Shown here piece after piece: positions 1 to 46,570 of a stretch of DNA of 46,570 nucleotides. The position numbers and the translations under genes are program-made. Origin of the DNA: a virus (Duplodnaviria; Heunggongvirae; Uroviricota; Caudoviricetes); IMG/VR virus record IMGVR_UViG_2537562223_000006; one strand, given 5' to 3'. Each line of letters opens with the position of its first letter. Position 1 is the stretch's first letter. The notes beneath the pieces were generated by a model, which saw only the letters and a list, made by a program, of their open reading frames with translations, did not search any database and had not been told where the DNA came from.

Positions 1-1284
1 TTACTTCTTCGCCTCTGCAACCACTTTACTACCCACGCCGCGGTTATTGTATTCCCACATGCGGTTGTAGTTAGTGTCATTCAGATTGCGCTGTATTTCG
101 TCGTTATCATCTACGCTGCCGGTATTACCCGCAAACGGACGATTAGAGATCACCGCATCGGCCCACGGTTTAGCCGTGTTAAAACCTTCGTTGATGGCGC
201 TATCACGGATCACCACCTGACCGTTGGTATTGGCATCAACATCCAGCGAGCGGCCCAGTTGCGCCACACCATCACCGAAAGCATTGAAACGGCTGTTTAC
301 GGCGAGGAAACCGTAGTAAATGTTGGACAGCGTAGCCGGTGCAAACACATACGCTTCTTGCTGAGTACGTGAGTTCACCACGCGGAATTCGGTGTTATCG
401 AACACCACTGCGCCGCGACCAGAAACGATATCCACATCCCCTTCAATGTAGCTGTTGGTCACCAGCGTACGCGGCTGACGGTTGGTTTCCAGACGGTTCT
501 GCACACCGCTGTTGGTGACAAAGAAGGTGTTCTGACGACCGAGAATGTTAACGTTGTTAATCTGTACCTGGTCACCATCAGTACGCAGTGCCACCGCCGG
601 ATGGTTACCTGCATCTACGCTATCGCCCAGCGTGTTTTCGATGGTCAGATTTTGCAGTTGCAGGCCATTGTTTTGTGACCAGAAGACCGCAGAGCAGAGA
701 ACACCGATACTGTCGCTGCGTTTGCTCTGGCAGCTATCGTACATATACCACGCTGGTTTACCTGGCATATATTTGCCGCGCGGGTTGACGTCGTGACGCC
801 AGTCGGCAGGGCTCATGCCACCATCAAGGGAAAGCCCAATCTTCACATCAATCGGTTTTTCACCTGTACCGTACAGAGTAATTCCACCCGGAGCGGCAGG
901 GACATATACCGTTCCCTGATACTCACCAGGCATCACGGCAATATACTGGCGCTTGTTGGTACGCTTGATAATTGCCGCATCTACCGCCGCCTGAATCGTG
1001 GTATGCGTTACACCTTGAGTGCCCGCCGGGCCGACAACAAAGTCAGGTTGCGCAGGCAGGGTAATCGGGGAAGGATTCCACGCTGCAGCACCTGGTGTCA
1101 GGGATGCAAAATAGTGTTGAGCATCGAAATTCTGCGCTTCTTTTGCCGACAGAATCGGGCGAGAAGAGGTACCAGGCGCGGTTTGATCAGAAGGACGTTG
1201 ATCGGGCGGGGTTGAGCTACAGGCGGTCAGCGTCACGCCAAAAGCCAATGCCAGCGCCAGACGGGAAACTGAAAATGTGTTCAC
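1..1284 (-). CDS. ybhC: Host outer-membrane lipoprotein YbhC (pectinesterase-family acyl-CoA thioesterase), complete
   Basis: 427-aa ORF with lipoprotein signal (LTACSS); recalled as E. coli YbhC, the gene flanking lambda attB. Stop at 1-3. Confidence 0.9.
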   Translation of the reverse strand: MNTFSVSRLALALAFGVTLTACSSTPPDQRPSDQTAPGTSSRPILSAKEAQNFDAQHYFASLTPGAAAWNPSPITLPAQPDFVVGPAGTQGVTHTTIQAAVDAAIIKRTNKRQYIAVMPGEYQGTVYVPAAPGGITLYGTGEKPIDVKIGLSLDGGMSPADWRHDVNPRGKYMPGKPAWYMYDSCQSKRSDSIGVLCSAVFWSQNNGLQLQNLTIENTLGDSVDAGNHPAVALRTDGDQVQINNVNILGRQNTFFVTNSGVQNRLETNRQPRTLVTNSYIEGDVDIVSGRGAVVFDNTEFRVVNSRTQQEAYVFAPATLSNIYYGFLAVNSRFNAFGDGVAQLGRSLDVDANTNGQVVIRDSAINEGFNTAKPWADAVISNRPFAGNTGSVDDNDEIQRNLNDTNYNRMWEYNNRGVGSKVVAEAKK

Positions 1285-1315
1285 AGGTTGCTCCGGGCTA
1301 TGAAATAGAAAAATG

Positions 1316-1430
1316 AATCCGTTGAAGCCTGCTTTTTTATACTAAGTTGGCATTATAAAAAAGCATTGCTTATCAATTTGTTGCAACGAACAGGTCACTA
1401 TCAGTCAAAATAAAATCATTATTTGATTTC
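1316..1430. other. attL: attL (host arm, 15-bp lambda core at 1331-1345, phage P' arm)
   Basis: Core GCTTTTTTATACTAA at 1331-1345 followed by sequence recalled as the lambda attP P' arm (..ACAGGTCACTATCAGTCAAAATAAAATCATTATTTGATTTC..), directly abutting int. Confidence 0.9.
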
Positions 1431-2489
1431 AATTTTGTCCCACTCCCTGCCTCTGTCATCACGATACTGTGATGCCATGGTGTCCGACTTATGCCCGAGA
1501 AGATGTTGAGCAAACTTATCGCTTATCTGCTTCTCATAGAGTCTTGCAGACAAACTGCGCAACTCGTGAAAGGTAGGCGGATCCCCTTCGAAGGAAAGAC
1601 CTGATGCTTTTCGTGCGCGCATAAAATACCTTGATACTGTGCCGGATGAAAGCGGTTCGCGACGAGTAGATGCAATTATGGTTTCTCCGCCAAGAATCTC
1701 TTTGCATTTATCAAGTGTTTCCTTCATTGATATTCCGAGAGCATCAACATGCAATGCTGTTGGGATGGCAATTTTTACGCCTGTTTTGCTTTGCTCGACA
1801 TAAAGATATCCATCTACGATATCAGACCACTTCATTTCGCATAAATCACCAACTCGTTGCCCGGTAACAACAGCCAGTTCCATTGCAAGTCTGAGCCAAC
1901 ATGGTGATGATTCTGCTGCTTGATAAATTTTCAGGTATTCGTCAGCCGTAAGTCTTGATCTCCTTACCTCTGATTTTGCTGCGCGAGTGGCAGCGACAGG
2001 GTTTGTTGTTATATGGCCTTCAGCTATTGCCTCTCGGAATGCATCGCTCAGTGTTGATCTGATTAACTTGGCTGACGCCGCCTTGCCCTCGTCTATGTAT
2101 CCATTGAGCATTGCCGCAATTTCTTTTGTGGTGATGTCTTCAAGTGGAGCATCAGGCAGACCCCTCCTTATTGCTTTAATTTTGCTCATGTAATTTATGA
2201 GTGTCTTCTGCTTGATTCCTCTGCTGGCCAGGATTTTTTCGTAGCGATCAAGCCATGAATGTAACGTAACGGAATTATCACTGTTGATTCTCGCTGTCAG
2301 AGGCTTGTGTTTGTGTCCTGAAAATAACTCAATGTTGGCCTGTATAGCTTCAGTGATTGCGATTCGCCTGTCTCGGCCTAATCCAAACTCTTTACCCGTC
2401 CTTGGGTCCCTGTAGCAGTAATATCCATTGTTTCTTATATAAAGGTTAGGGGGTAAATCCCGGCGCTCATGACTTCGCCTTCTTCCCAT
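1419..2489 (-). CDS. int: Lambda-type integrase (tyrosine recombinase)
   Basis: 356-aa ORF starting MGRRRSHERRDLPPNLYIRNNGYYCYRDPRTGKEF; near-identical to lambda Int by recall; ATG at 2489. Confidence 0.97.
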   Translation of the reverse strand: MGRRRSHERRDLPPNLYIRNNGYYCYRDPRTGKEFGLGRDRRIAITEAIQANIELFSGHKHKPLTARINSDNSVTLHSWLDRYEKILASRGIKQKTLINYMSKIKAIRRGLPDAPLEDITTKEIAAMLNGYIDEGKAASAKLIRSTLSDAFREAIAEGHITTNPVAATRAAKSEVRRSRLTADEYLKIYQAAESSPCWLRLAMELAVVTGQRVGDLCEMKWSDIVDGYLYVEQSKTGVKIAIPTALHVDALGISMKETLDKCKEILGGETIIASTRREPLSSGTVSRYFMRARKASGLSFEGDPPTFHELRSLSARLYEKQISDKFAQHLLGHKSDTMASQYRDDRGREWDKIEIK

Positions 2490-3848: not shown

Positions 3849-3937
3849 ATCCTGCATTCGCGCACCCATCGACGAACTGTTTCAAGGCTTCTTGGGCGTC
3901 GCTGGCGAGCGTTCCACTCCTGAAGTGTCAAGTACAT
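3849..3937 (-). pseudogene. xis: Excisionase xis, 5' fragment (codons 1-30), interrupted by the IS insertion
   Basis: Reverse strand from ATG at 3937 translates MYLTLQEWNARQRRPRSLETVRRWVRECRI, the lambda Xis N-terminus; the two fragments plus one copy of the 3-bp duplication sum to 219 nt (72 codons + stop). Confidence 0.9.
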
Positions 3938-3976
3938 CGCAAAGTCTCCGCAATTACACGCAAGAAAAAACCGCCA

Positions 3977-4144
3977 TCAGGCGGCTTGGTGTTCTTTCAG
4001 TTCTTCAATTCGAATATTGGTTACGTCTGCATGTGCTATCTGCGCCCACAGCATCCAGTGGTCATAGCAGTCGCTGATGTTCTCGGCTTCGATAACTCTG
4101 TTGAATGGTTCTCCATTCCATTCACCTGTGACTCGGAAGTGCAT
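3977..4144 (-). CDS. Small hypothetical phage protein (55 aa), orf55-like, upstream of xis
   Basis: ATG at 4144 preceded by GGAG; MHFRVTGEWNGEPFNRVIEAENISDCYDHWMLWAQIAHADVTNIRIEELKEHQAA; below the 60-aa cutoff of the ORF track. Confidence 0.6.
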   Translation of the reverse strand: MHFRVTGEWNGEPFNRVIEAENISDCYDHWMLWAQIAHADVTNIRIEELKEHQAA

Positions 4145-4458
4145 TTATCATCTCCATAAAACAAAACCCGCCGTAGCGAGTTCAGATAAAAGAAATCCTC
4201 GTCAGTGCGAGGATGCTGTTCATTGCTGCTATACACTTTTTTGCTCTCAACGTAAGCGGTAGCCCATTCTGTTGGGTTGGTGCAGTTGCTTTTAGGAAAT
4301 GCTATTTACCCCTTAAATGTCGGCTGAAAGAGCTAAAATCCATGCAAAAAATTTACGCAATTTTGTGTATTATTGTGCAGTAAGTAATGAGCTATTTTCT
4401 GCGCAAAAAATGGATGGTAAATTTGTCCGGGTCAGGAAAAATTTTATGGGCGCTAAAC

Positions 4459-4989
4459 ATGAAAAAAGATTCGTATCCTTATTTGATTTGCATGACAGTT
4501 TCAGGGCTGATCTTTATTTTCCTTTTCTTCTGGTGGCGGGCAGATATCTACAGGGTCACGTTTCTTAATCAGAGTATATCCCACTATTACATTCTGTTTA
4601 GCATGGGAATAGCTTTTCTGTTATCTCTGTTTTGGGTTAAGAAGGGGATAGTAAAACAAAGCGGCTGGAAGAGTCTGTCAGCATACCTTAAGGTTTATGC
4701 AGGGATGTGCATATTTGCTGGATTTTTTCTGATTATACCCCTTACGACACTAACTTATTTTTTGCCTGGAGAGACATCGTCTTATGTTGCACCGTATCGG
4801 TATACTTCCGGTAGTTCAAAAAGTTGTTCTGGAGCTGAGGTGGATGACCCCGATCTACATGAGAATATTCGCATTTGCTATCCGTATGGCAATTATGAGT
4901 ACGATAATATTATCTATGTTGAAAAGAAAATTAATATATTAGGTGCGGTAGTGACATATGCACAGACCGCGCGTGATGATACTGAATGA
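4459..4989 (+). CDS. Hypothetical integral membrane protein (~4 predicted TM helices plus ~70-aa C-terminal soluble tail); AT-rich moron
   Basis: Long ORF (track 4387-4989); ATG at 4459 gives MKKDSYPYLICMTVSGLIFIFLFFWW..; hydrophobic segments; opposite strand to surrounding early genes; low GC by eye. Confidence 0.6.
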   Translation: MKKDSYPYLICMTVSGLIFIFLFFWWRADIYRVTFLNQSISHYYILFSMGIAFLLSLFWVKKGIVKQSGWKSLSAYLKVYAGMCIFAGFFLIIPLTTLTYFLPGETSSYVAPYRYTSGSSKSCSGAEVDDPDLHENIRICYPYGNYEYDNIIYVEKKINILGAVVTYAQTARDDTE

Positions 4990-5023
4990 TATAGTATATA
5001 GCGGGCAAGTTTTAGTTAATTTA

Positions 5024-5048
5024 TCGAGGTAATATAATTTACCTCGAC
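5024..5048. terminator. Perfect 9-bp stem hairpin (TCGAGGTAA / TTACCTCGA) between convergent genes; possible bidirectional terminator
   Basis: tcgaggtaatataatttacctcga followed by T-containing tract; lies between the ends of the membrane-protein gene and the TraR-like gene. Confidence 0.4.
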
Positions 5049-5199
5049 TCGTTTGTTCTGGTATTAATATTTCGCTTTACGACCGATTTTTATCTGATGA
5101 TATCATGCGGTTTTCATATACTGACTTACTGTCTTTTCTCCGTTAGCGATTTTCTCCTGCTCAGCGATGATTTTATCTTTGGCTTCTAGTTAATTTCGC

Positions 5200-5421
5200 T
5201 CACTTCGAACCTCTCTGTTTACTGATAAGCTCCAGATCTTGCTGGCAACTGGCACAAGTCCGACAACCCTGAACGGCCAGTCGTCTTCGTTCATCTATCG
5301 GATCGCCACACTCACAACAATGAGTGGCAGATATAGCCTGGTGGTTCAGGCGGCGCATTTTTATTGCTGTGTTGCGCTGTAATTCTTCAATTTCTGATGC
5401 TGAATCAATTATGTCTGCCAT
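5200..5421 (-). CDS. TraR/DksA-family C4 zinc-finger protein
   Basis: 73 aa; CxxC..(17)..CxxC motif (CCECGDPIDERRRLAVQGCRTCASC), typical of phage TraR-like proteins. Confidence 0.8.
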   Translation of the reverse strand: MADIIDSASEIEELQRNTAIKMRRLNHQAISATHCCECGDPIDERRRLAVQGCRTCASCQQDLELISKQRGSK

Positions 5422-11503: not shown

Positions 11504-12433
11504 ATGGCAAACACTGCTGAGATATTCAATTTTCCAGTGCCGGATGCGGCACAAAAGGAGCCGCGCGTGGCAGATCTCGATGATGGTTATACGCGCATTG
11601 CAAATGAGTTGCTGGAAGCTGTGATGCTGGCCGGATTAACACAGCACCAGCTTCTGGTCTTCCTGGCTGTCATGCGCAAAACATATGGCTTTAATAAAAA
11701 ACTGGATTGGGTGAGCAACGAGCAACTTTCCGAGTTGACCGGGATATTGCCGCACAAGTGTTCTGCTGCAAAAAGTGTTCTGGTAAAGCGTGGGATTTTT
11801 ATTCAGAGCGGGCGGAATATCGGCATTAATAATGTGGTCAGTGAATGGTCAACATTACCCGAATCAGGTAAGAAAAATAAAGTTTACCTGAAAGAGGTAA
11901 ATTTACCTGAATCAGGTAAGAAAAGTTTACCCAAATCAGGTAAAGGCACTTACCCGAATCAGGTAAACACAAAAGACAAACTAACAAAAGACAATATAAA
12001 ACCTTATTCGTCCGAGAATTCTGGCGAATACTCTGACCAGCCAGAAAACGACCTTCCTGTGGTGAAACCGGATGCTGCGATTCAGAGCGGCAGCAAGTGG
12101 GGGACAGCAGAAGACCTGACCGCCGCAGAGTGGATGTTTGACATGGTGAAGACCATCGCGCCATCAGCCAGAAAACCGAATTTTGCAGGGTGGGCCAACG
12201 ACATCCGCCTGATGCGTGAGCGTGACGGGCGTAACCATCGCGACATGTGCGTTCTGTTCCGCTGGGCCTGCCAGGACAACTTTTGGTCTGGTAACGTGCT
12301 GAGCCCGGCCAAACTTCGCGACAAATGGACCCAACTCGAAATCAACCGTAACAAACAACAGGCTGGCGTGACAGCCGGAAAACCAAAACTCGACCTGACA
12401 AACACAGACTGGATTTACGGGGTGGATCTATGA
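11504..12433 (+). CDS. O: Replication initiator O (lambda O family)
   Basis: Start MANTAEIFNFPVPDAAQKEPRVADLDDGYTRIANELLEAV.. parallels lambda O; internal ori iterons; GGAGG-like RBS; 4-nt overlap with P. Confidence 0.9.
   Translation: MANTAEIFNFPVPDAAQKEPRVADLDDGYTRIANELLEAVMLAGLTQHQLLVFLAVMRKTYGFNKKLDWVSNEQLSELTGILPHKCSAAKSVLVKRGIFIQSGRNIGINNVVSEWSTLPESGKKNKVYLKEVNLPESGKKSLPKSGKGTYPNQVNTKDKLTKDNIKPYSSENSGEYSDQPENDLPVVKPDAAIQSGSKWGTAEDLTAAEWMFDMVKTIAPSARKPNFAGWANDIRLMRERDGRNHRDMCVLFRWACQDNFWSGNVLSPAKLRDKWTQLEINRNKQQAGVTAGKPKLDLTNTDWIYGVDL
11860..11970 (+). repeat. ori iterons: five ~18-bp direct repeats (TTACCCGAATCAGGTAAG type) inside O, followed by an AT-rich tract
   Basis: ttacccgaatcaggtaag / ttacctgaaagaggtaaa / ttacctgaatcaggtaag / ttacccaaatcaggtaaa / ttacccgaatcaggtaaa, then acaaaagacaaactaacaaaagacaatataaaa. 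Confidence 0.85.
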
Positions 12434-13116
12434 AAAACATCGCCGCACAGATGATTAACTTTGACCGTGAGCAGATGCGTCGGATCGCCAACAACATGCC
12501 GGAACAGTACGACGAAAAGCCGCAGGTACAGCAGGTAGCGCAGATCATCAACGGTGTATTCAGCCAGTTGCTGGCAACTTTCCCTGCGAGCCTCGCGAAC
12601 CGTGACCAGAACGAGCTGAACGAAATCCGCCGTCAGTGGGTTATGGCTTTCCGTGAAAATGGAATTACCACTATGGAGCAGGTTAACGCCGGAATGCGCG
12701 TGGCCCGCCGACAGGAGCGACCATTCCTGCCGTCGCCCGGCCAGTTCGTAGCGTGGTGTAAGCAGAGTGGCGGGGCGTTAGGTATCACTGTTGACCAAGT
12801 CATAACCGAATACTGGGATTGGCGTAATCGTTCCTTCGAATTCACTTCCAGCGAGCATTTCCCGTGGTCACAGCCTGTCATGTACCACATCTGCGTCGAA
12901 CTGCGCCACCGTAGCATTGAGCGCCAGTTAACGCATGGCGAGCTGGCATGCGAGGCTGGTGACCTGCTGGACATGTGGGAGAAGCGCGTCAGTGAGGGCA
13001 AACCAATCCCTCCGGTCAGAAAACAAATCTCGGCTCCGCGCCACGTGCCCGGGCCGACTCCCGCTCAGCTTTTGCTTGAGCAATACAAAGCGCGTAAAGC
13101 AGTCGGATTTATTTAA
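12430..13116 (+). CDS. P: Replication protein P (helicase loader), lambda P family with divergent C-terminal half
   Basis: 228 aa; N-terminal ~110 aa recalled as near-identical to lambda P (MKNIAAQMINFDREQMRRIANNMPEQYDEKPQVQQVAQIINGVFSQLLATF..). Confidence 0.9.
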   Translation: MKNIAAQMINFDREQMRRIANNMPEQYDEKPQVQQVAQIINGVFSQLLATFPASLANRDQNELNEIRRQWVMAFRENGITTMEQVNAGMRVARRQERPFLPSPGQFVAWCKQSGGALGITVDQVITEYWDWRNRSFEFTSSEHFPWSQPVMYHICVELRHRSIERQLTHGELACEAGDLLDMWEKRVSEGKPIPPVRKQISAPRHVPGPTPAQLLLEQYKARKAVGFI

Positions 13117-13118
13117 CC

Positions 13119-13703
13119 ATGAACAAGAAATACACGTTGATCTAAGCGGATCCGCCCTGGACGTACGAGGATAAATGCAATTCTGGTAAGCGTGGCACCG
13201 GGCATAAATACTTGGTTATGACGGTGCAGGATATCTGCTGGCTGCCAGTAAGGGAGCGGGTTGCAGAAAGCTGCCAGCTGGCGATGTGGTGGTTGCCAAC
13301 TCAACCGTTCGAGGCGATGAAAGTCGTCGATGCCTGGGGATTTCGCCTGATCACAATGAAAGGTTTCACTTGGGATAAAACCTACCCGAAGCAAACTGAC
13401 AAATCGGCGATGGGAATGGGACACCTGATCCGGGCGAACCGTGAAGATTGTCTTTTCGCGGTAAAGGGTAAGCGGGCACCACAGCAGGACGCCTCGATCA
13501 TCCAGCACTTCACCTCGCCGCGACATGAGCACTCACGTAAACCAGACTGCGTGCGTGAAATGCTGGTTCGGTTGCTGGGTAATCTTCCACGTATTGAGCT
13601 CTTTGCGCGTAAATCCTCCCACGGTTTCGACGTATGGGGAAACAAGTGTGATTCGCCAACCGTATCATTAAGCCCGGCCCGAGTTACTGATGTTTATTCT
13701 TAA
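13119..13703 (+). pseudogene. MT-A70-like N6-adenine DNA methyltransferase with in-frame TAA at codon 9 (13143-13145), just before the DPPW catalytic motif
   Basis: Frame reads MNKKYTLI*ADPPWTYEDKCNSGKRGTGHKYLVMTVQDICWLPV..; ATG 13119 is coupled to the P stop; the track ORF 13212-13703 is the remainder, starting after DPPW. Confidence 0.6.
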
Positions 13704-13914
13704 AAGAATTAACTGAAAAGAGGAAGGTTTGATGAGTTTTTTTACGTGAATTAACACGTAAGACTGCTGGTTATTAAACCATCACATTAGATATCTAAAA
13801 ATTGTGATCGGTATCTCCCTACTATAAAAAATAGTAGTTGAATATACGGTCTATACTTGAAATAAATAAAAGTATTCTTATTTTTTAGATGCTGTGTTGT
13901 GAAAAGGAATTTTT

Positions 13915-14946
13915 ATGTCCTCGAATATTTTACCTGATGAAAAAGTAATCAATAAAATTGCTGAAAAGTTGAGCGATTATAAATATCCTCCGGCTGAAGG
14001 TATGAACTCTGAACATGTCAGCAAATGGATTAAGCAATTTGCAGTGGAGGATAGACGATTTATCTTAGATGAAACGCTTTATCTACTTAATGCAGGTTAC
14101 CTGTCCGAAAGTCAATATCAACGAAAAATAAAAGCCATTGCAAGAAGTGAAAAGAACGCGAAATTGTTCAGATATGCAGGTTTTTTAGATATTCAAAAAA
14201 AAGGTTCTAGTCAGAAGGAATTGCTTAAATCTCTTTATGAAACAGTAGGGATCAAATTTAACATCGTTACTGAATCATCAACTCAAGATGAAGTAAATAA
14301 ATTTGATACATTTGTATATATTGATGATGTGTCGTTTTCAGGAGAAAAGGCCATCAAATCGATAAGTAATTTTGTTATAAAATTTAATTTAAGAGATATT
14401 AAAGTCAATGTATATTTTTTTTCATCTCATACGTTATCTGACTATAATATAAAAAGACGATTAGAATATATTTTTAAGGATAGAAATATTTTTGTACACG
14501 TGAAGAATGGTGGTATGCGTGAGGTTGAAAACCGAAAAAGTCGTTCTGCTCAATCAGGTGTTTTCTGGCCAAGGAAATATAGTGTAGATACTCCCGAGAA
14601 ATTCGAGGAGTGTGAGCTTTACAAAGGCGTATTCAGAGATGGATATGCCTCTTCTGATAGTTTTAGAAATGAAGCCTCAAGGGATCGTTTCGAATCTATC
14701 CTTACTAAAGTCGGCTTTAATATCTTGCTGCACAGGAAAACCCCTAGTGAGGTGCTCAAACCTCTAGGTTTTTCTACTTTTGACGGTTTGGGTTTTGGGG
14801 GAACAACATTTACTTATCGAAATTGCCCGAATAATGTGCCGCTGGCTTTTTGGTGGGGAGATTATGAACCAACAGGTGCTCCCGCATTGGACTGCTGGTA
14901 TCCACTAATGAAGCGGAATGGGTATAATGAGTGGTATGAGCTATAG
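13915..14946 (+). CDS. Hypothetical 343-aa protein with a possible phosphoribosyltransferase-like PRPP-binding motif (FVYIDDVSFSGEKA); AT-rich moron, gene 1 of a two-gene cassette
   Basis: Long ORF in low-GC DNA; AGGA RBS; motif is a partial match to the hhhhDD..(S/T)G.(S/T) PRTase signature; C-terminal half unassigned. Confidence 0.55.
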   Translation: MSSNILPDEKVINKIAEKLSDYKYPPAEGMNSEHVSKWIKQFAVEDRRFILDETLYLLNAGYLSESQYQRKIKAIARSEKNAKLFRYAGFLDIQKKGSSQKELLKSLYETVGIKFNIVTESSTQDEVNKFDTFVYIDDVSFSGEKAIKSISNFVIKFNLRDIKVNVYFFSSHTLSDYNIKRRLEYIFKDRNIFVHVKNGGMREVENRKSRSAQSGVFWPRKYSVDTPEKFEECELYKGVFRDGYASSDSFRNEASRDRFESILTKVGFNILLHRKTPSEVLKPLGFSTFDGLGFGGTTFTYRNCPNNVPLAFWWGDYEPTGAPALDCWYPLMKRNGYNEWYEL

Positions 14947-15547
14947 ATTATATCCGCTACAGAACACAGTTTCCTTCAGGAAAACCACCGAAAAATGGGG
15001 GGGGCTTTCCAACATGGCTAAAGGGTATCCATTGTTAATCAATGGGTTGCCTATTCAATCAAGTGAAATCCTTTACCAAGCATGCCGATATCCAGACTAT
15101 CCGGATATACAAAAGGCCATCATTACTCAAGGAAACCCCTATGAAGCCAAGCAGACCGCAAGATCGTTTGAATCCAAAACTCGCGCAGGATGGGATAAGA
15201 ATCGAGTTTCGATTATGAAGTGGTGTGTATGCGTAAAATTATGCCAGAACTGGGATACGTTCTTTGCGCTGTTAGACAGTACAGGCGACCATTTCATCGT
15301 GGAACACTCAGAGAAGGACCAATTCTGGGGTGCCAGTAAAGACCCAGAAGGTAACTATTATGGTATGAACGTATTAGGGCGAATTCTCATGGACGTGAGA
15401 GGGGTTGCTAGGAAAAAGGGGGCTGATGGGTTTGCAACAATACCATCGCTATCTTTGGACAAATTTTTTCTCCTAGGCGAGAGAATTAAAGATGTAACAT
15501 TTGTAGAGCCAACGCCTGGAGCAGGGCAAAGTTTATCCTTGTTTTAG
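14927..15547 (+). CDS. NADAR-family protein (YbiA-like, DUF1768; N-glycosidase / ADP-ribose-processing fold), gene 2 of the cassette
   Basis: GGLSNMAKGYPLLINGLPIQSSEILYQACRY and IVEHSEKDQFWGASKDPEGNYYGMNVLGRILMDVR parallel the recalled E. coli YbiA motifs; start overlaps the upstream gene stop. Confidence 0.75.
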   Translation: MSGMSYRLYPLQNTVSFRKTTEKWGGLSNMAKGYPLLINGLPIQSSEILYQACRYPDYPDIQKAIITQGNPYEAKQTARSFESKTRAGWDKNRVSIMKWCVCVKLCQNWDTFFALLDSTGDHFIVEHSEKDQFWGASKDPEGNYYGMNVLGRILMDVRGVARKKGADGFATIPSLSLDKFFLLGERIKDVTFVEPTPGAGQSLSLF

Positions 15548-17212: not shown

Positions 17213-17297
17213 AGTCAGAGATAACAATCAACTAATACTGTTTTGTTGATTTTTGCTTGTAATTGGCGTTCTGGTCTGATTTTTGTGGAGTAAGTTG

Positions 17298-17681
17298 ATG
17301 CGTGATATTCAGATGGTTCTTGAGCGTTGGGGAGCGTGGGCGGCTAATAATCATGAAGATGTGACCTGGTCGTCCATTGCCGCCGGTTTTAAGGGATTAA
17401 TTACTTCAAAAGTAAAATCTCGCCCGCAATGTTGTGACGATGACGCGATGATCATTTGCGGGTGCATGGCCCGTCTGAAAAAGAACAACAGCGATTTGCA
17501 CGATTTATTAGTAGATTATTATGTAGTCGGTATGACATTCATGTCACTGGCAGGTAAGCATTGCTGCTCTGATGGTTATATCGGGAAAAGGTTACAGAAG
17601 GCTGAGGGCATAATTGAAGGGATGTTAATGGCATTAGATATCCGGTTAGAGATGGATATCGTTGTTAATAACTCTAATTAA
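17298..17681 (+). CDS. Q: Late-gene antiterminator Q, small Q21/QuuD-type
   Basis: 127 aa from [33 protein letters not shown]..; Cys-rich ([12 protein letters not shown]); last gene before the late regulatory region. Confidence 0.8.
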
Positions 17682-17870: not shown

Positions 17871-18968
17871 TTAGAACTGGTAAACCAGACCTACAGCAAC
17901 GATGTCATCAGTGCTTACACCGAGTGCTTTAGTGAAGTCATTTTTGTCAAGCAGGTTGATTTTGTAATCAACGAAAGTAGACATATTTTTGTTGAAGTAA
18001 TAGGTTGCACCTACATCAACATATTTGACTAAGTCCTGATCGCCCCATACTCCAAGATCCTTACCTTTAGATTGCAGGTAAGCAACGGACGGACGCAGAC
18101 CGAAATCGAACTGATATTGTGCAACAGCTTCGAAGTTTTGGGCTTTATTAGCAACGAAGTGATCAGCAAATACAGTCATATTCTGGGTTTCAGAATAGGT
18201 AGTGGCCAGGTAAATGTTGTTAGCGTCATATTTCAGACCTGCGGCCCAAACTTCTGCATTTTTACCGGAAGCAAATACTTCAGGAAGAACTTTCCCTGCA
18301 TTAACTTGAGTGTCGGTACGATCAGATTTCGCATAAGTTGCACCGATACCGAATCCTTCGTATTCATAGGTAGCAGAGAAACCGAAGCCATCACCGTTAC
18401 CTTCAGTGTAGTTATCGAAATCGCTACGATCGTTTTTGCCTTGGTACTGAGCAGCAAAGTTCAGACCATCAACCAGACCAAAGAAGTCGTTGTTACGATA
18501 GGTTGCAACACCAGTGGTGCGACCAGTCATGAACACATCTGTTTGGGTCCAGGTATCGCCACCGAATTCTGGCAGAACGTCAGTCCACGCACCGATGTCG
18601 TATGCTACACCGTAGTTACGGCCGTAATCGATTGAGCCGTAGTCACCGAATTTCAGGCCTGCAAATGCAAGACGGGTTTTGTCTTTGGAGGAACCTTGAG
18701 ATTCAGCGCGGTTGCCTTTGAATTCATATTCCCACTGACCGAAACCAGTCAGTTGATCGTTGATTTGGGTTTCACCTTTGAAGCCAAGACGGGCATAAGT
18801 AGTATCACCATCATCTGCATCATTAGAGGAGAAGTAGTGCTTAGCATTAACTTTCCCGTACAGATCCAGCTTGTTACTGTCTTTATTATAAATTTCAGCT
18901 GCCTGAGCAGACATCGCCATCAGTACTGATGCAGCTACAGCAGAAATTGCCACTGTTAATTTTTTCAT
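17871..18968 (-). CDS. OmpC-family general porin (NmpC/Lc-like), lysogenic-conversion moron
   Basis: 365 aa; signal peptide [23 protein letters not shown]; C-terminal ..VGLVYQF; antisense to late transcription between Q and the lysis cassette. Confidence 0.93.
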
Positions 18969-45986: not shown

Positions 45987-46570
45987 TGGCATTCAGAATG
46001 AGTGAACAACCACGGACCATAAAAATTTATAATCTGCTGGCCGGAACTAATGAATTTATTGGTGAAGGTGATGCATATATTCCGCCTCATACAGGTCTGC
46101 CAGCAAACAGTACCGATATTGCACCGCCAGATATTCCGGCTGGCTTCGTGGCTGTTTTCAACAGTGATGAGTCATCGTGGCATCTCGTTGAAGATCATCG
46201 GGGTAAAACGGTTTATGACGTGGCTTCCGGCGACGCGTTATTTATTTCTGAACTCGGTCCGTTACCGGAAAATGTTACCTGGTTATCGCCGGAAGGGGAG
46301 TTTCAGAAGTGGAACGGCACAGCCTGGGTGAAGGATACGGAAGCAGAAAAACTGTTCCGGATCCGGGAGGCGGAAGAAACAAAAAACAGCCTGATGCAGG
46401 TAGCCAGTGAGCATATTGCGCCGCTTCAGGATGCTGCAGATCTGGAAATTGCAACGGAGGAAGAAATCTCGTTGCTGGAAGCATGGAAAAAGTATCGGGT
46501 ATTGCTGAACCGTGTTAATACAACAACTGCACCGGATATTGAATGGCCAACAGGACCCATTATCGAATAG
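45986..46570 (+). CDS. tfa: Tail fibre assembly protein Tfa
   Basis: 194 aa [62 protein letters not shown]..; stop at the last bases of the window. Confidence 0.95.

Follow-up and report, generated by a model that had tools for sequence, protein, structure and literature searches.

The reading frame that begins at ATG 13119 of the analysed DNA is very probably an ordinary pseudogene, i.e., a dead phage MT-A70 N6-adenine methyltransferase gene that drifts and persists by linkage to its neighbours. The whole stretch of DNA that was analysed (46,570 nucleotides, called the window below) appears to be a complete lambda-like prophage that adjoins a ybhC-like host gene. In the window, codon 9 of the methyltransferase frame is a TAA, which stands in front of the codons for the catalytic DPPW motif. 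The locus is already flagged as an internal-stop pseudogene in RefSeq, and it is of little importance in itself, as a point-mutated accessory prophage gene is routine. The positions of the features are collected in Table 1.

Table 1. Features of the methyltransferase locus and its neighbours, in window positions.
Feature	Position	Strand	Remarks
Replication gene P	12430..13116	+	Intact neighbour used for comparison; left edge of the shared block at ~12616
Probable MT-A70-family adenine methyltransferase pseudogene	13119..13703	+	194 codons and terminal stop, interrupted at codon 9
Premature TAA (ochre) at codon 9	13143..13145	+	In place of the Tyr of the family
Catalytic DPPW codons (motif IV)	13149..13160	+	Stranded 3' of the stop
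Residual ORF without DPPW	13212..13703	+	From TTG 13212 (163 aa) or ATG 13218 (161 aa)
DS-32 anti-phage pair	13915..15547	+	PRTase-like gene 13915-14946; NADAR gene from 14918 or 14936 to 15547

Reading frame and family assignment

From ATG 13119-13121, the frame reads ATG AAC AAG AAA TAC ACG TTG ATC TAA, which corresponds to MNKKYTLI and a stop. Past this TAA, it stays open without a shift for 185 more codons, beginning with ADPPWTYEDK..., up to the terminal TAA at 13701-13703. The start codon follows 2 nt after the stop codon of the replication gene P (TAA, 13114-13116). This course of the frame had been put forward in the original prediction, and it was confirmed by the sequence and its translation. 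The claim that the frame encodes an adenine methyltransferase of the MT-A70 type was likewise borne out by the repaired translation, in which codon 9 is read as Tyr: it matched the Pfam profile MT-A70 (PF05063, gathering score 23.9) nearly end to end (profile positions 1-171 of 172, E 1.3e-22, 80.9 bits). The repaired protein also matched PHROG 359 'DNA methyltransferase' (E 4.9e-93) and the PADLOC type II methyltransferase model MTase_II (E 1.2e-67), and NCBIfam held no model specific to this methyltransferase.

The DPPW codons align with the near-invariant columns D11, P12, P13 and W14 of the family (alignment A1, 19 relatives). The eight codons before the stop are part of the ancestral gene, since MNKKYTLIYADPPW is identical to the exact N-terminus of the intact relative P0004. 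To judge by these sequences, the 13119 frame is a real interrupted gene and no chance ORF. As regards membership in the MT-A70 family, DPPW is encoded in frame in the DNA but, given the upstream stop, is absent from the product, and an uninterrupted frame able to yield the catalytic domain was found in no copy, as every one carries the TAA.

The stop codon in independent sequences

The stop is real and inherited. A search of 5426 complete E. coli genomes found the allele, at an identity of at least 99%, in 19 of them; over 13105-13185 (an 81-base query centred on the stop), each of these has 100% identity with the window. Twenty loci were fetched, from all 19 complete genomes and one draft genome, and each showed the TAA on direct reading. 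The TAA is also carried at codon 9 by ten of ten metagenomic or viral contigs (4 metagenomic, 6 from IMG/VR), which were found with a DNA pattern across codon 9 whose third base was left free; the same pattern gave 0 matches in the GTDB species representatives. Thus, the same TAA occurs in 30 independent public sequences besides the window, and a sense codon at 13143-13145 was found in none. The carriers of the fetched loci derive from humans, cattle, birds, a mouse and a frog, cover four continents and were sequenced by many different groups. For each of the 19 complete genomes, the PGAP annotation of the same interval is that of a pseudogene with the note 'MT-A70 family methyltransferase, internal stop'.

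The original prediction had also considered a sequencing error, and a single base change would indeed restore the frame, so that with a true codon TAT or TAC the gene would be intact. An error of sequencing or assembly is nevertheless next to impossible: the identical TAA was obtained in the complete genomes by different laboratories, in different countries and from different hosts, as well as in the draft genome and the ten contigs, the annotation already reads 'internal stop', and the stop lies outside any homopolymer (TTGATCTAAGCGG).

Two loci that might have represented further disruptions of the pseudogene were discarded. One of them (L031) is a contig of 1.5x coverage riddled with indels. 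The other (L028, QZME01014045.1) is probably a chimeric assembly; it matches the window up to 13467, and from locus position 967 it consists of unrelated DNA with a Gram-positive-type LPXTG-like anchor protein.

Ancestral codon and search for intact copies

Of 109 full-length relatives, 105 have Tyr at position 9 and four have Leu, and the Tyr9 codon of the three closest relatives is TAT or TAC. Since the relatives use TAT or TAC at codon 9, one third-position transversion accounts for the stop. The inactivation by a single substitution that had been proposed, probably TAT to TAA, is supported by this codon and by the relaxed constraint downstream that is described below.

No intact copy of the allele was found in the complete E. 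coli genomes (near and distant search modes), GenBank phages, protein clusters, GTDB, metagenomes or IMG/VR. The other homologues in E. coli have about 70% DNA identity, and the GenBank phages gave no near DNA match and protein matches of at most 71%. The best full-length relative among 5.8 billion protein clusters is P0001, which is 80% identical, while P0002 (98% identical, 161 aa) is the truncated remnant of the same allele, called from ATG 13218. The best 120 relatives are full-length except for a few short ones, of which one is a truncated call of the same allele and two are labelled as partial by their source. Homologues that naturally start after the DPPW position, which would have spoken against the original prediction, were not found among the relatives; every full-length relative that was aligned begins upstream of the motif.

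Relaxed constraint and decay

The comparison of copies and relatives indicates that constraint on the methyltransferase gene is relaxed, with an excess of nonsynonymous change. When the window and the 20 fetched loci are compared, six sites of the pseudogene are polymorphic, five nonsynonymous (P63T, H102Y, F131Y, T132P and S183A) and one synonymous, versus one nonsynonymous and 24 synonymous differences in the adjacent P gene of the same carriers (Fisher p = 2e-4), a contrast that is based on 6 pseudogene sites only, with recent polymorphism always enriched in nonsynonymous changes and the P differences largely reflecting older recombined alleles. Across the family, P63 and H102 hardly vary; P63T is present in 19 of the 20 fetched loci and H102Y in one. 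The ancestral P63 and F131 are kept in the window and in strain 23CRST001, and the derived T63 and Y131 are common to the other carriers; this split between the carriers shows that decay went on after the shared stop.

The lineage of the window was also compared with that of P0001 as its sister, with P0003 and P0004 as outgroups, a topology backed by the four-point condition. Private amino-acid changes number 22 in the window lineage versus 7 in P0001 (relative-rate chi-square 7.8, p = 0.005), and the private synonymous changes are similar (14 and 12, respectively). Distance-based branch dN is 0.068 for the window and 0.037 for the sister, i.e., 1.8 times as high in the window lineage. Moreover, at the 83 columns that are at least 95% conserved in 109 relatives, the window deviates ten times (R41W, L47R, A48V, L53Q, V59L, L67M, T104I, L119R, P120A and R122Q), as against a mean of 1.2 (SD 1.6) in the others and two departures in P0001, and only one of the 109 relatives reaches ten. 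The radical changes among the ten are R41W, L47R, L53Q, P120A and R122Q. With 10 of 83 replaced, the family-invariant residues outside DPPW that go with MT-A70 membership have not been retained.

The neutral phase was estimated at about 0.024 (roughly 0.02-0.03) substitutions per site, which amounts to roughly 14 substitutions and takes up about 4% of the branch. About 0.65 stops are expected from this number of neutral substitutions, and so the presence of one stop and no indels fits a short neutral phase. The TAA may be one of the approximately 14 substitutions that followed the loss of constraint and was not necessarily the first lesion. Against a loss of function it can be said that the frame is open over all 194 codons bar the one stop, is free of indels and looks well preserved; an open frame without indels should, however, be the expected look of a young pseudogene. 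Branch-wide omega is 0.107 for the window lineage versus 0.072 for the sister, the former being only this high because most of the long branch predates the loss of constraint. A parsimony-based estimate had put the neutral share of the branch at about 29%; it was dropped because it reflected the saturation of synonymous sites.

One other relative recorded as 'full-length' departs from the conserved residues equally often (12 of 83 and 17 of 103 columns), and it may be another copy that evolves without constraint.

Possible products of the interrupted frame

In the proposed mechanism, a transversion from TAT or TAC to TAA would have replaced the Tyr9 codon by an ochre stop, two codons ahead of DPPW, and ribosomes starting at ATG 13119 would release a peptide of eight residues. 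There is no in-frame ATG, GTG or TTG between the stop and DPPW, so that no catalytically competent protein would arise, and DPPW is not regained by shifting the frame by +1 or -1 at the stop. The motif cannot be translated without readthrough. From these features of the frame, we infer that no functional protein would be made from the locus, the sequence of which would drift neutrally once constraint was lost.

UAA is the least leaky stop codon in E. coli, and UAA followed by G is a context of efficient termination. ARAGORN found no tRNA gene in the 46.6-kb window; therefore, no suppressor is supplied by the phage. A phage-borne ochre suppressor was rejected as a candidate on this ground, with the IS009 motif as the only Rfam match in the window. 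These observations bear on the alternative that the stop is leaky, and that ochre readthrough or a host suppressor gives trace amounts of full-length enzyme, by which the dose of a potentially toxic or induction-promoting activity would be kept very low. The remainder of the frame is open, as such an explanation would demand, and for relatives from the same clade, weak or absent expression and harmful effects of overproduction were reported (PMC10810198; PMC7736820). However, in addition to the missing tRNA gene and the efficient UAA-G context, the changes downstream of the stop are of the neutral type (e.g., R41W, L53Q, L47R, P120A and R122Q in the window and P63T and H102Y in the carriers). 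The radical changes at near-invariant residues speak against selection on a full-length product, and the pattern of decay suggests that no sequence downstream of the stop is under selection, which counts against a useful trace of readthrough. We consider a leaky stop very improbable.

The next ATG downstream of the stop, and with it a possible restart, had been placed at 13212. The residual ORF does lack DPPW, as predicted, but the codon at 13212 is TTG, and the first ATG is found at 13218 (Met34). The truncated ORF is long and still matches MT-A70 (E 3.5e-18), and it is called 'MT-A70 family protein' in some annotations (P0002), so a product of 161-163 aa might be made and serve a non-catalytic role, such as the binding of AdoMet, nucleic acid or a partner protein. 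This is highly unlikely, as neither TTG 13212 nor ATG 13218 is preceded within 20 nt by a core resembling a Shine-Dalgarno sequence, the ratio of five nonsynonymous to one synonymous polymorphism applies to exactly this stretch, in which family-invariant residues are replaced, and the aligned full-length relatives, as stated above, all start upstream of DPPW. Homologues of PNB-2, the ParB-like protein and PerC, which accompany the relatives described below, are also missing from the window (tblastn E > 0.4). A scan of 12900-14100 for promoters and terminators gave nothing above the shuffled expectation. The remnant of 161-163 aa should not be annotated as an active "MT-A70 family protein", and in methylome studies of the lysogen no phage-specific m6A motif is to be expected from the pseudogene.

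Former function and known relatives

The closest characterised relative is M.EcoPA8orf6770P (gp5 of the Stx2a phage phiPA8), which is about 64% identical to the repaired window protein and highly similar to M.EcoGV of an E. coli O104:H4 Stx phage (PMC10810198). Like both of these, the repaired protein is a small MT-A70 enzyme from a temperate coliphage, about 200 aa long, and bears the ...KKYTLIYADPPW motif at its N-terminus. The copy in phiON-2011 (O104:H4) is 63.5% identical to the repaired protein over 189 residues, and the alignment covers residues 1-189 only. M.EcoPA8orf6770P forms a 1:1 complex with the product of its upstream gene, PNB-2; in vitro, it prefers 16S rRNA in 30S subunits over DNA, and it methylates DNA weakly or when overproduced, while overproduced M.EcoGV methylated GATC in DNA (PMC10810198). 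The replacement of DPPW by APPA abolishes complementation by M.EcoPA8orf6770P, which makes the motif essential, and the enzyme raises spontaneous prophage induction (PMC10810198). For the window gene, 'adenine methyltransferase' is a safe label; the target in this clade may have been DNA or RNA.

In the Stx phages, the gene is located in the early-left region near int/xis with the PNB-2 gene upstream, whereas the window copy follows the replication gene P. A tblastn search of the window with ORF08, the PNB-2 equivalent of phiON-2011, gave no match (best E = 1.0). The C-terminal extension of about 27 residues that is linked to PNB-2 is also absent, the window protein having 194 aa versus the 208 aa of phiON-2011. 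Shorter methyltransferase variants are described as lacking PNB-2 (PMC10810198).

The commonest intact relatives in E. coli, with about 70% DNA identity, are the adenine methylases of phiV10/epsilon15-like phages (Uetakevirus) and of related enterobacterial prophages. The methylase of phiV10 belongs to the same PHROG 359, and the repaired window protein is 65.6% identical to it over 192 residues. Unlike the window gene, the genes of this group are intact, lie beside a PerC-type activator near the integrase and have a longer C-terminal tail. P0001, which comes from a metagenomic lambdoid prophage (loci L005 and L006), is closer to the window copy, as it is 80% identical, occupies the same position in the replication module and has TAT as codon 9; it differs in being intact and in overlapping an upstream ParB-like gene of 273 aa. 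Neither this ParB-like neighbour nor the PerC of phiV10 has a tblastn match in the window. Solved structures that are detectable by sequence are those of eukaryotic MT-A70 proteins only (7f4r, E 2.6e-10; METTL3, E ~2e-5). The eukaryotic proteins (METTL3 and the Tetrahymena MTA1 complex) share the fold family and a DPPW-type catalytic motif with the window protein, but they are distant, multi-subunit and directed at eukaryotic RNA or DNA, and they are relevant to the role of the motif only.

Linkage to the DS-32 genes

Just 3' of the pseudogene, the G+C content drops to 0.27-0.33 over a pair of genes encoding a PRTase-like protein of 343 aa and a NADAR protein of 203-209 aa. The pair matches the Pfam families PRTase-CE and NADAR and the NCBIfam equivalogs DS32_1 (E 2.5e-93) and DS32_2 (E 4.2e-77). 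DS-32 is an experimentally validated defence system from the DefensePredictor study (bioRxiv 10.1101/2025.01.08.631726). At an identity of at least 99%, the genomes with the pair coincide exactly with the 19 that carry the pseudogene. Between the PRTase gene of the window and those of the other carriers, six nonsynonymous and six synonymous sites were counted.

The left border of the shared DNA was located in gene P, where the 25 differences among the carriers (24 of them synonymous) all lie in the first 186 nt (12430-12616) and none beyond, so that a recombination boundary is placed inside P. A block of about 3 kb (~12616 to ~15700) is thereby common to prophages that differ in the immunity region and in the downstream genes. 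The pseudogene is a handy marker of this block, from the middle of P to DS-32, which travels between lambdoid prophages of E. coli that differ in their immunity regions.

According to the proposed mechanism, the block would have spread among E. coli lambdoid prophages, and the dead gene would persist in it by physical linkage to useful genes. Hitch-hiking with the DS-32 cargo appears to be the simplest reason for its persistence.

The prophages that share the block are mosaic and belong to at least two immunity types (S24 cI and XRE). In strain 23CRST001 (L001, NZ_AP045758.1), the pseudogene is 100% identical to that of the window, and ISVsa5 (IS4-like) is inserted in the DS-32 PRTase gene at locus positions 3866-5390; the window copy of the PRTase gene is uninterrupted.

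Possible selection for loss of the methyltransferase

A further explanation is compatible with that of a pseudogene and addresses why the dead allele became fixed, namely that the loss itself was selected, because lower spontaneous induction or the absence of toxic or restriction-provoking methylation favoured lysogens carrying the block. The Stx phage phiPA2, likewise a resident prophage, offers a parallel, as its gene of this family is a natural loss-of-function allele. The lesion in phiPA2 is an IS629 insertion with a measured phenotype, whereas that of the window is a point nonsense mutation; the IS629-disrupted allele lowers induction and virulence (PMC10810198). By analogy with the Stx-phage homologue, which raises spontaneous induction with its DPPW motif and lowers it when disrupted by IS629 (PMC10810198), loss in the window prophage could have been of advantage. 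The nonsense allele is, moreover, the sole form of the allele found. In several records of Stx2a-converting phages (H226-H230 and H198), the match to the methyltransferase is confined to residues 89-189 or 30-189, which fits a recurrent disruption of the gene family, e.g., by IS629 as in phiPA2. On the other hand, selection cannot be told apart from hitch-hiking on the linked DS-32 genes, the window is devoid of PNB-2, which is needed for the described rRNA activity and the induction effect, and the allele is rare (19 of 5426 genomes). Selected loss is rated as unlikely. If true, it would strengthen the case, made recently, for a tuning of prophage induction by phage MT-A70 enzymes. It is slightly more doubtful that, on the same analogy, the loss 'tamed' the prophage and helped the DS-32 cargo to persist or spread, as a second, independent silencing by point mutation that would be convergent with the IS629 case.

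Prophage context

Apart from the genes described above, the prophage carries genes for a lambda-type integrase, an S24 cI repressor, O, P, Q, a porin moron, terminase, the major capsid protein and a tail fibre. Window positions 1-2489 (minus strand) hold the ybhC-like host gene (pectinesterase-family, 427 aa), followed by the lambda-type integrase with its arm-binding domain, an arrangement that suggests integration of the prophage at the classical lambda attachment site or close to it. A full-length Gram-negative porin (Porin_1, E 1e-156) is encoded on the minus strand at 17871-18968, just 3' of the antiterminator gene Q (17283-17681), and it is a moron of the NmpC/Lc type, as in DLP12-like prophages. 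Near that end of the prophage where the tail fibre is encoded, the Rfam motif IS009 (RF02111) was detected at full length on the plus strand (46329-46527, 224.6 bits).
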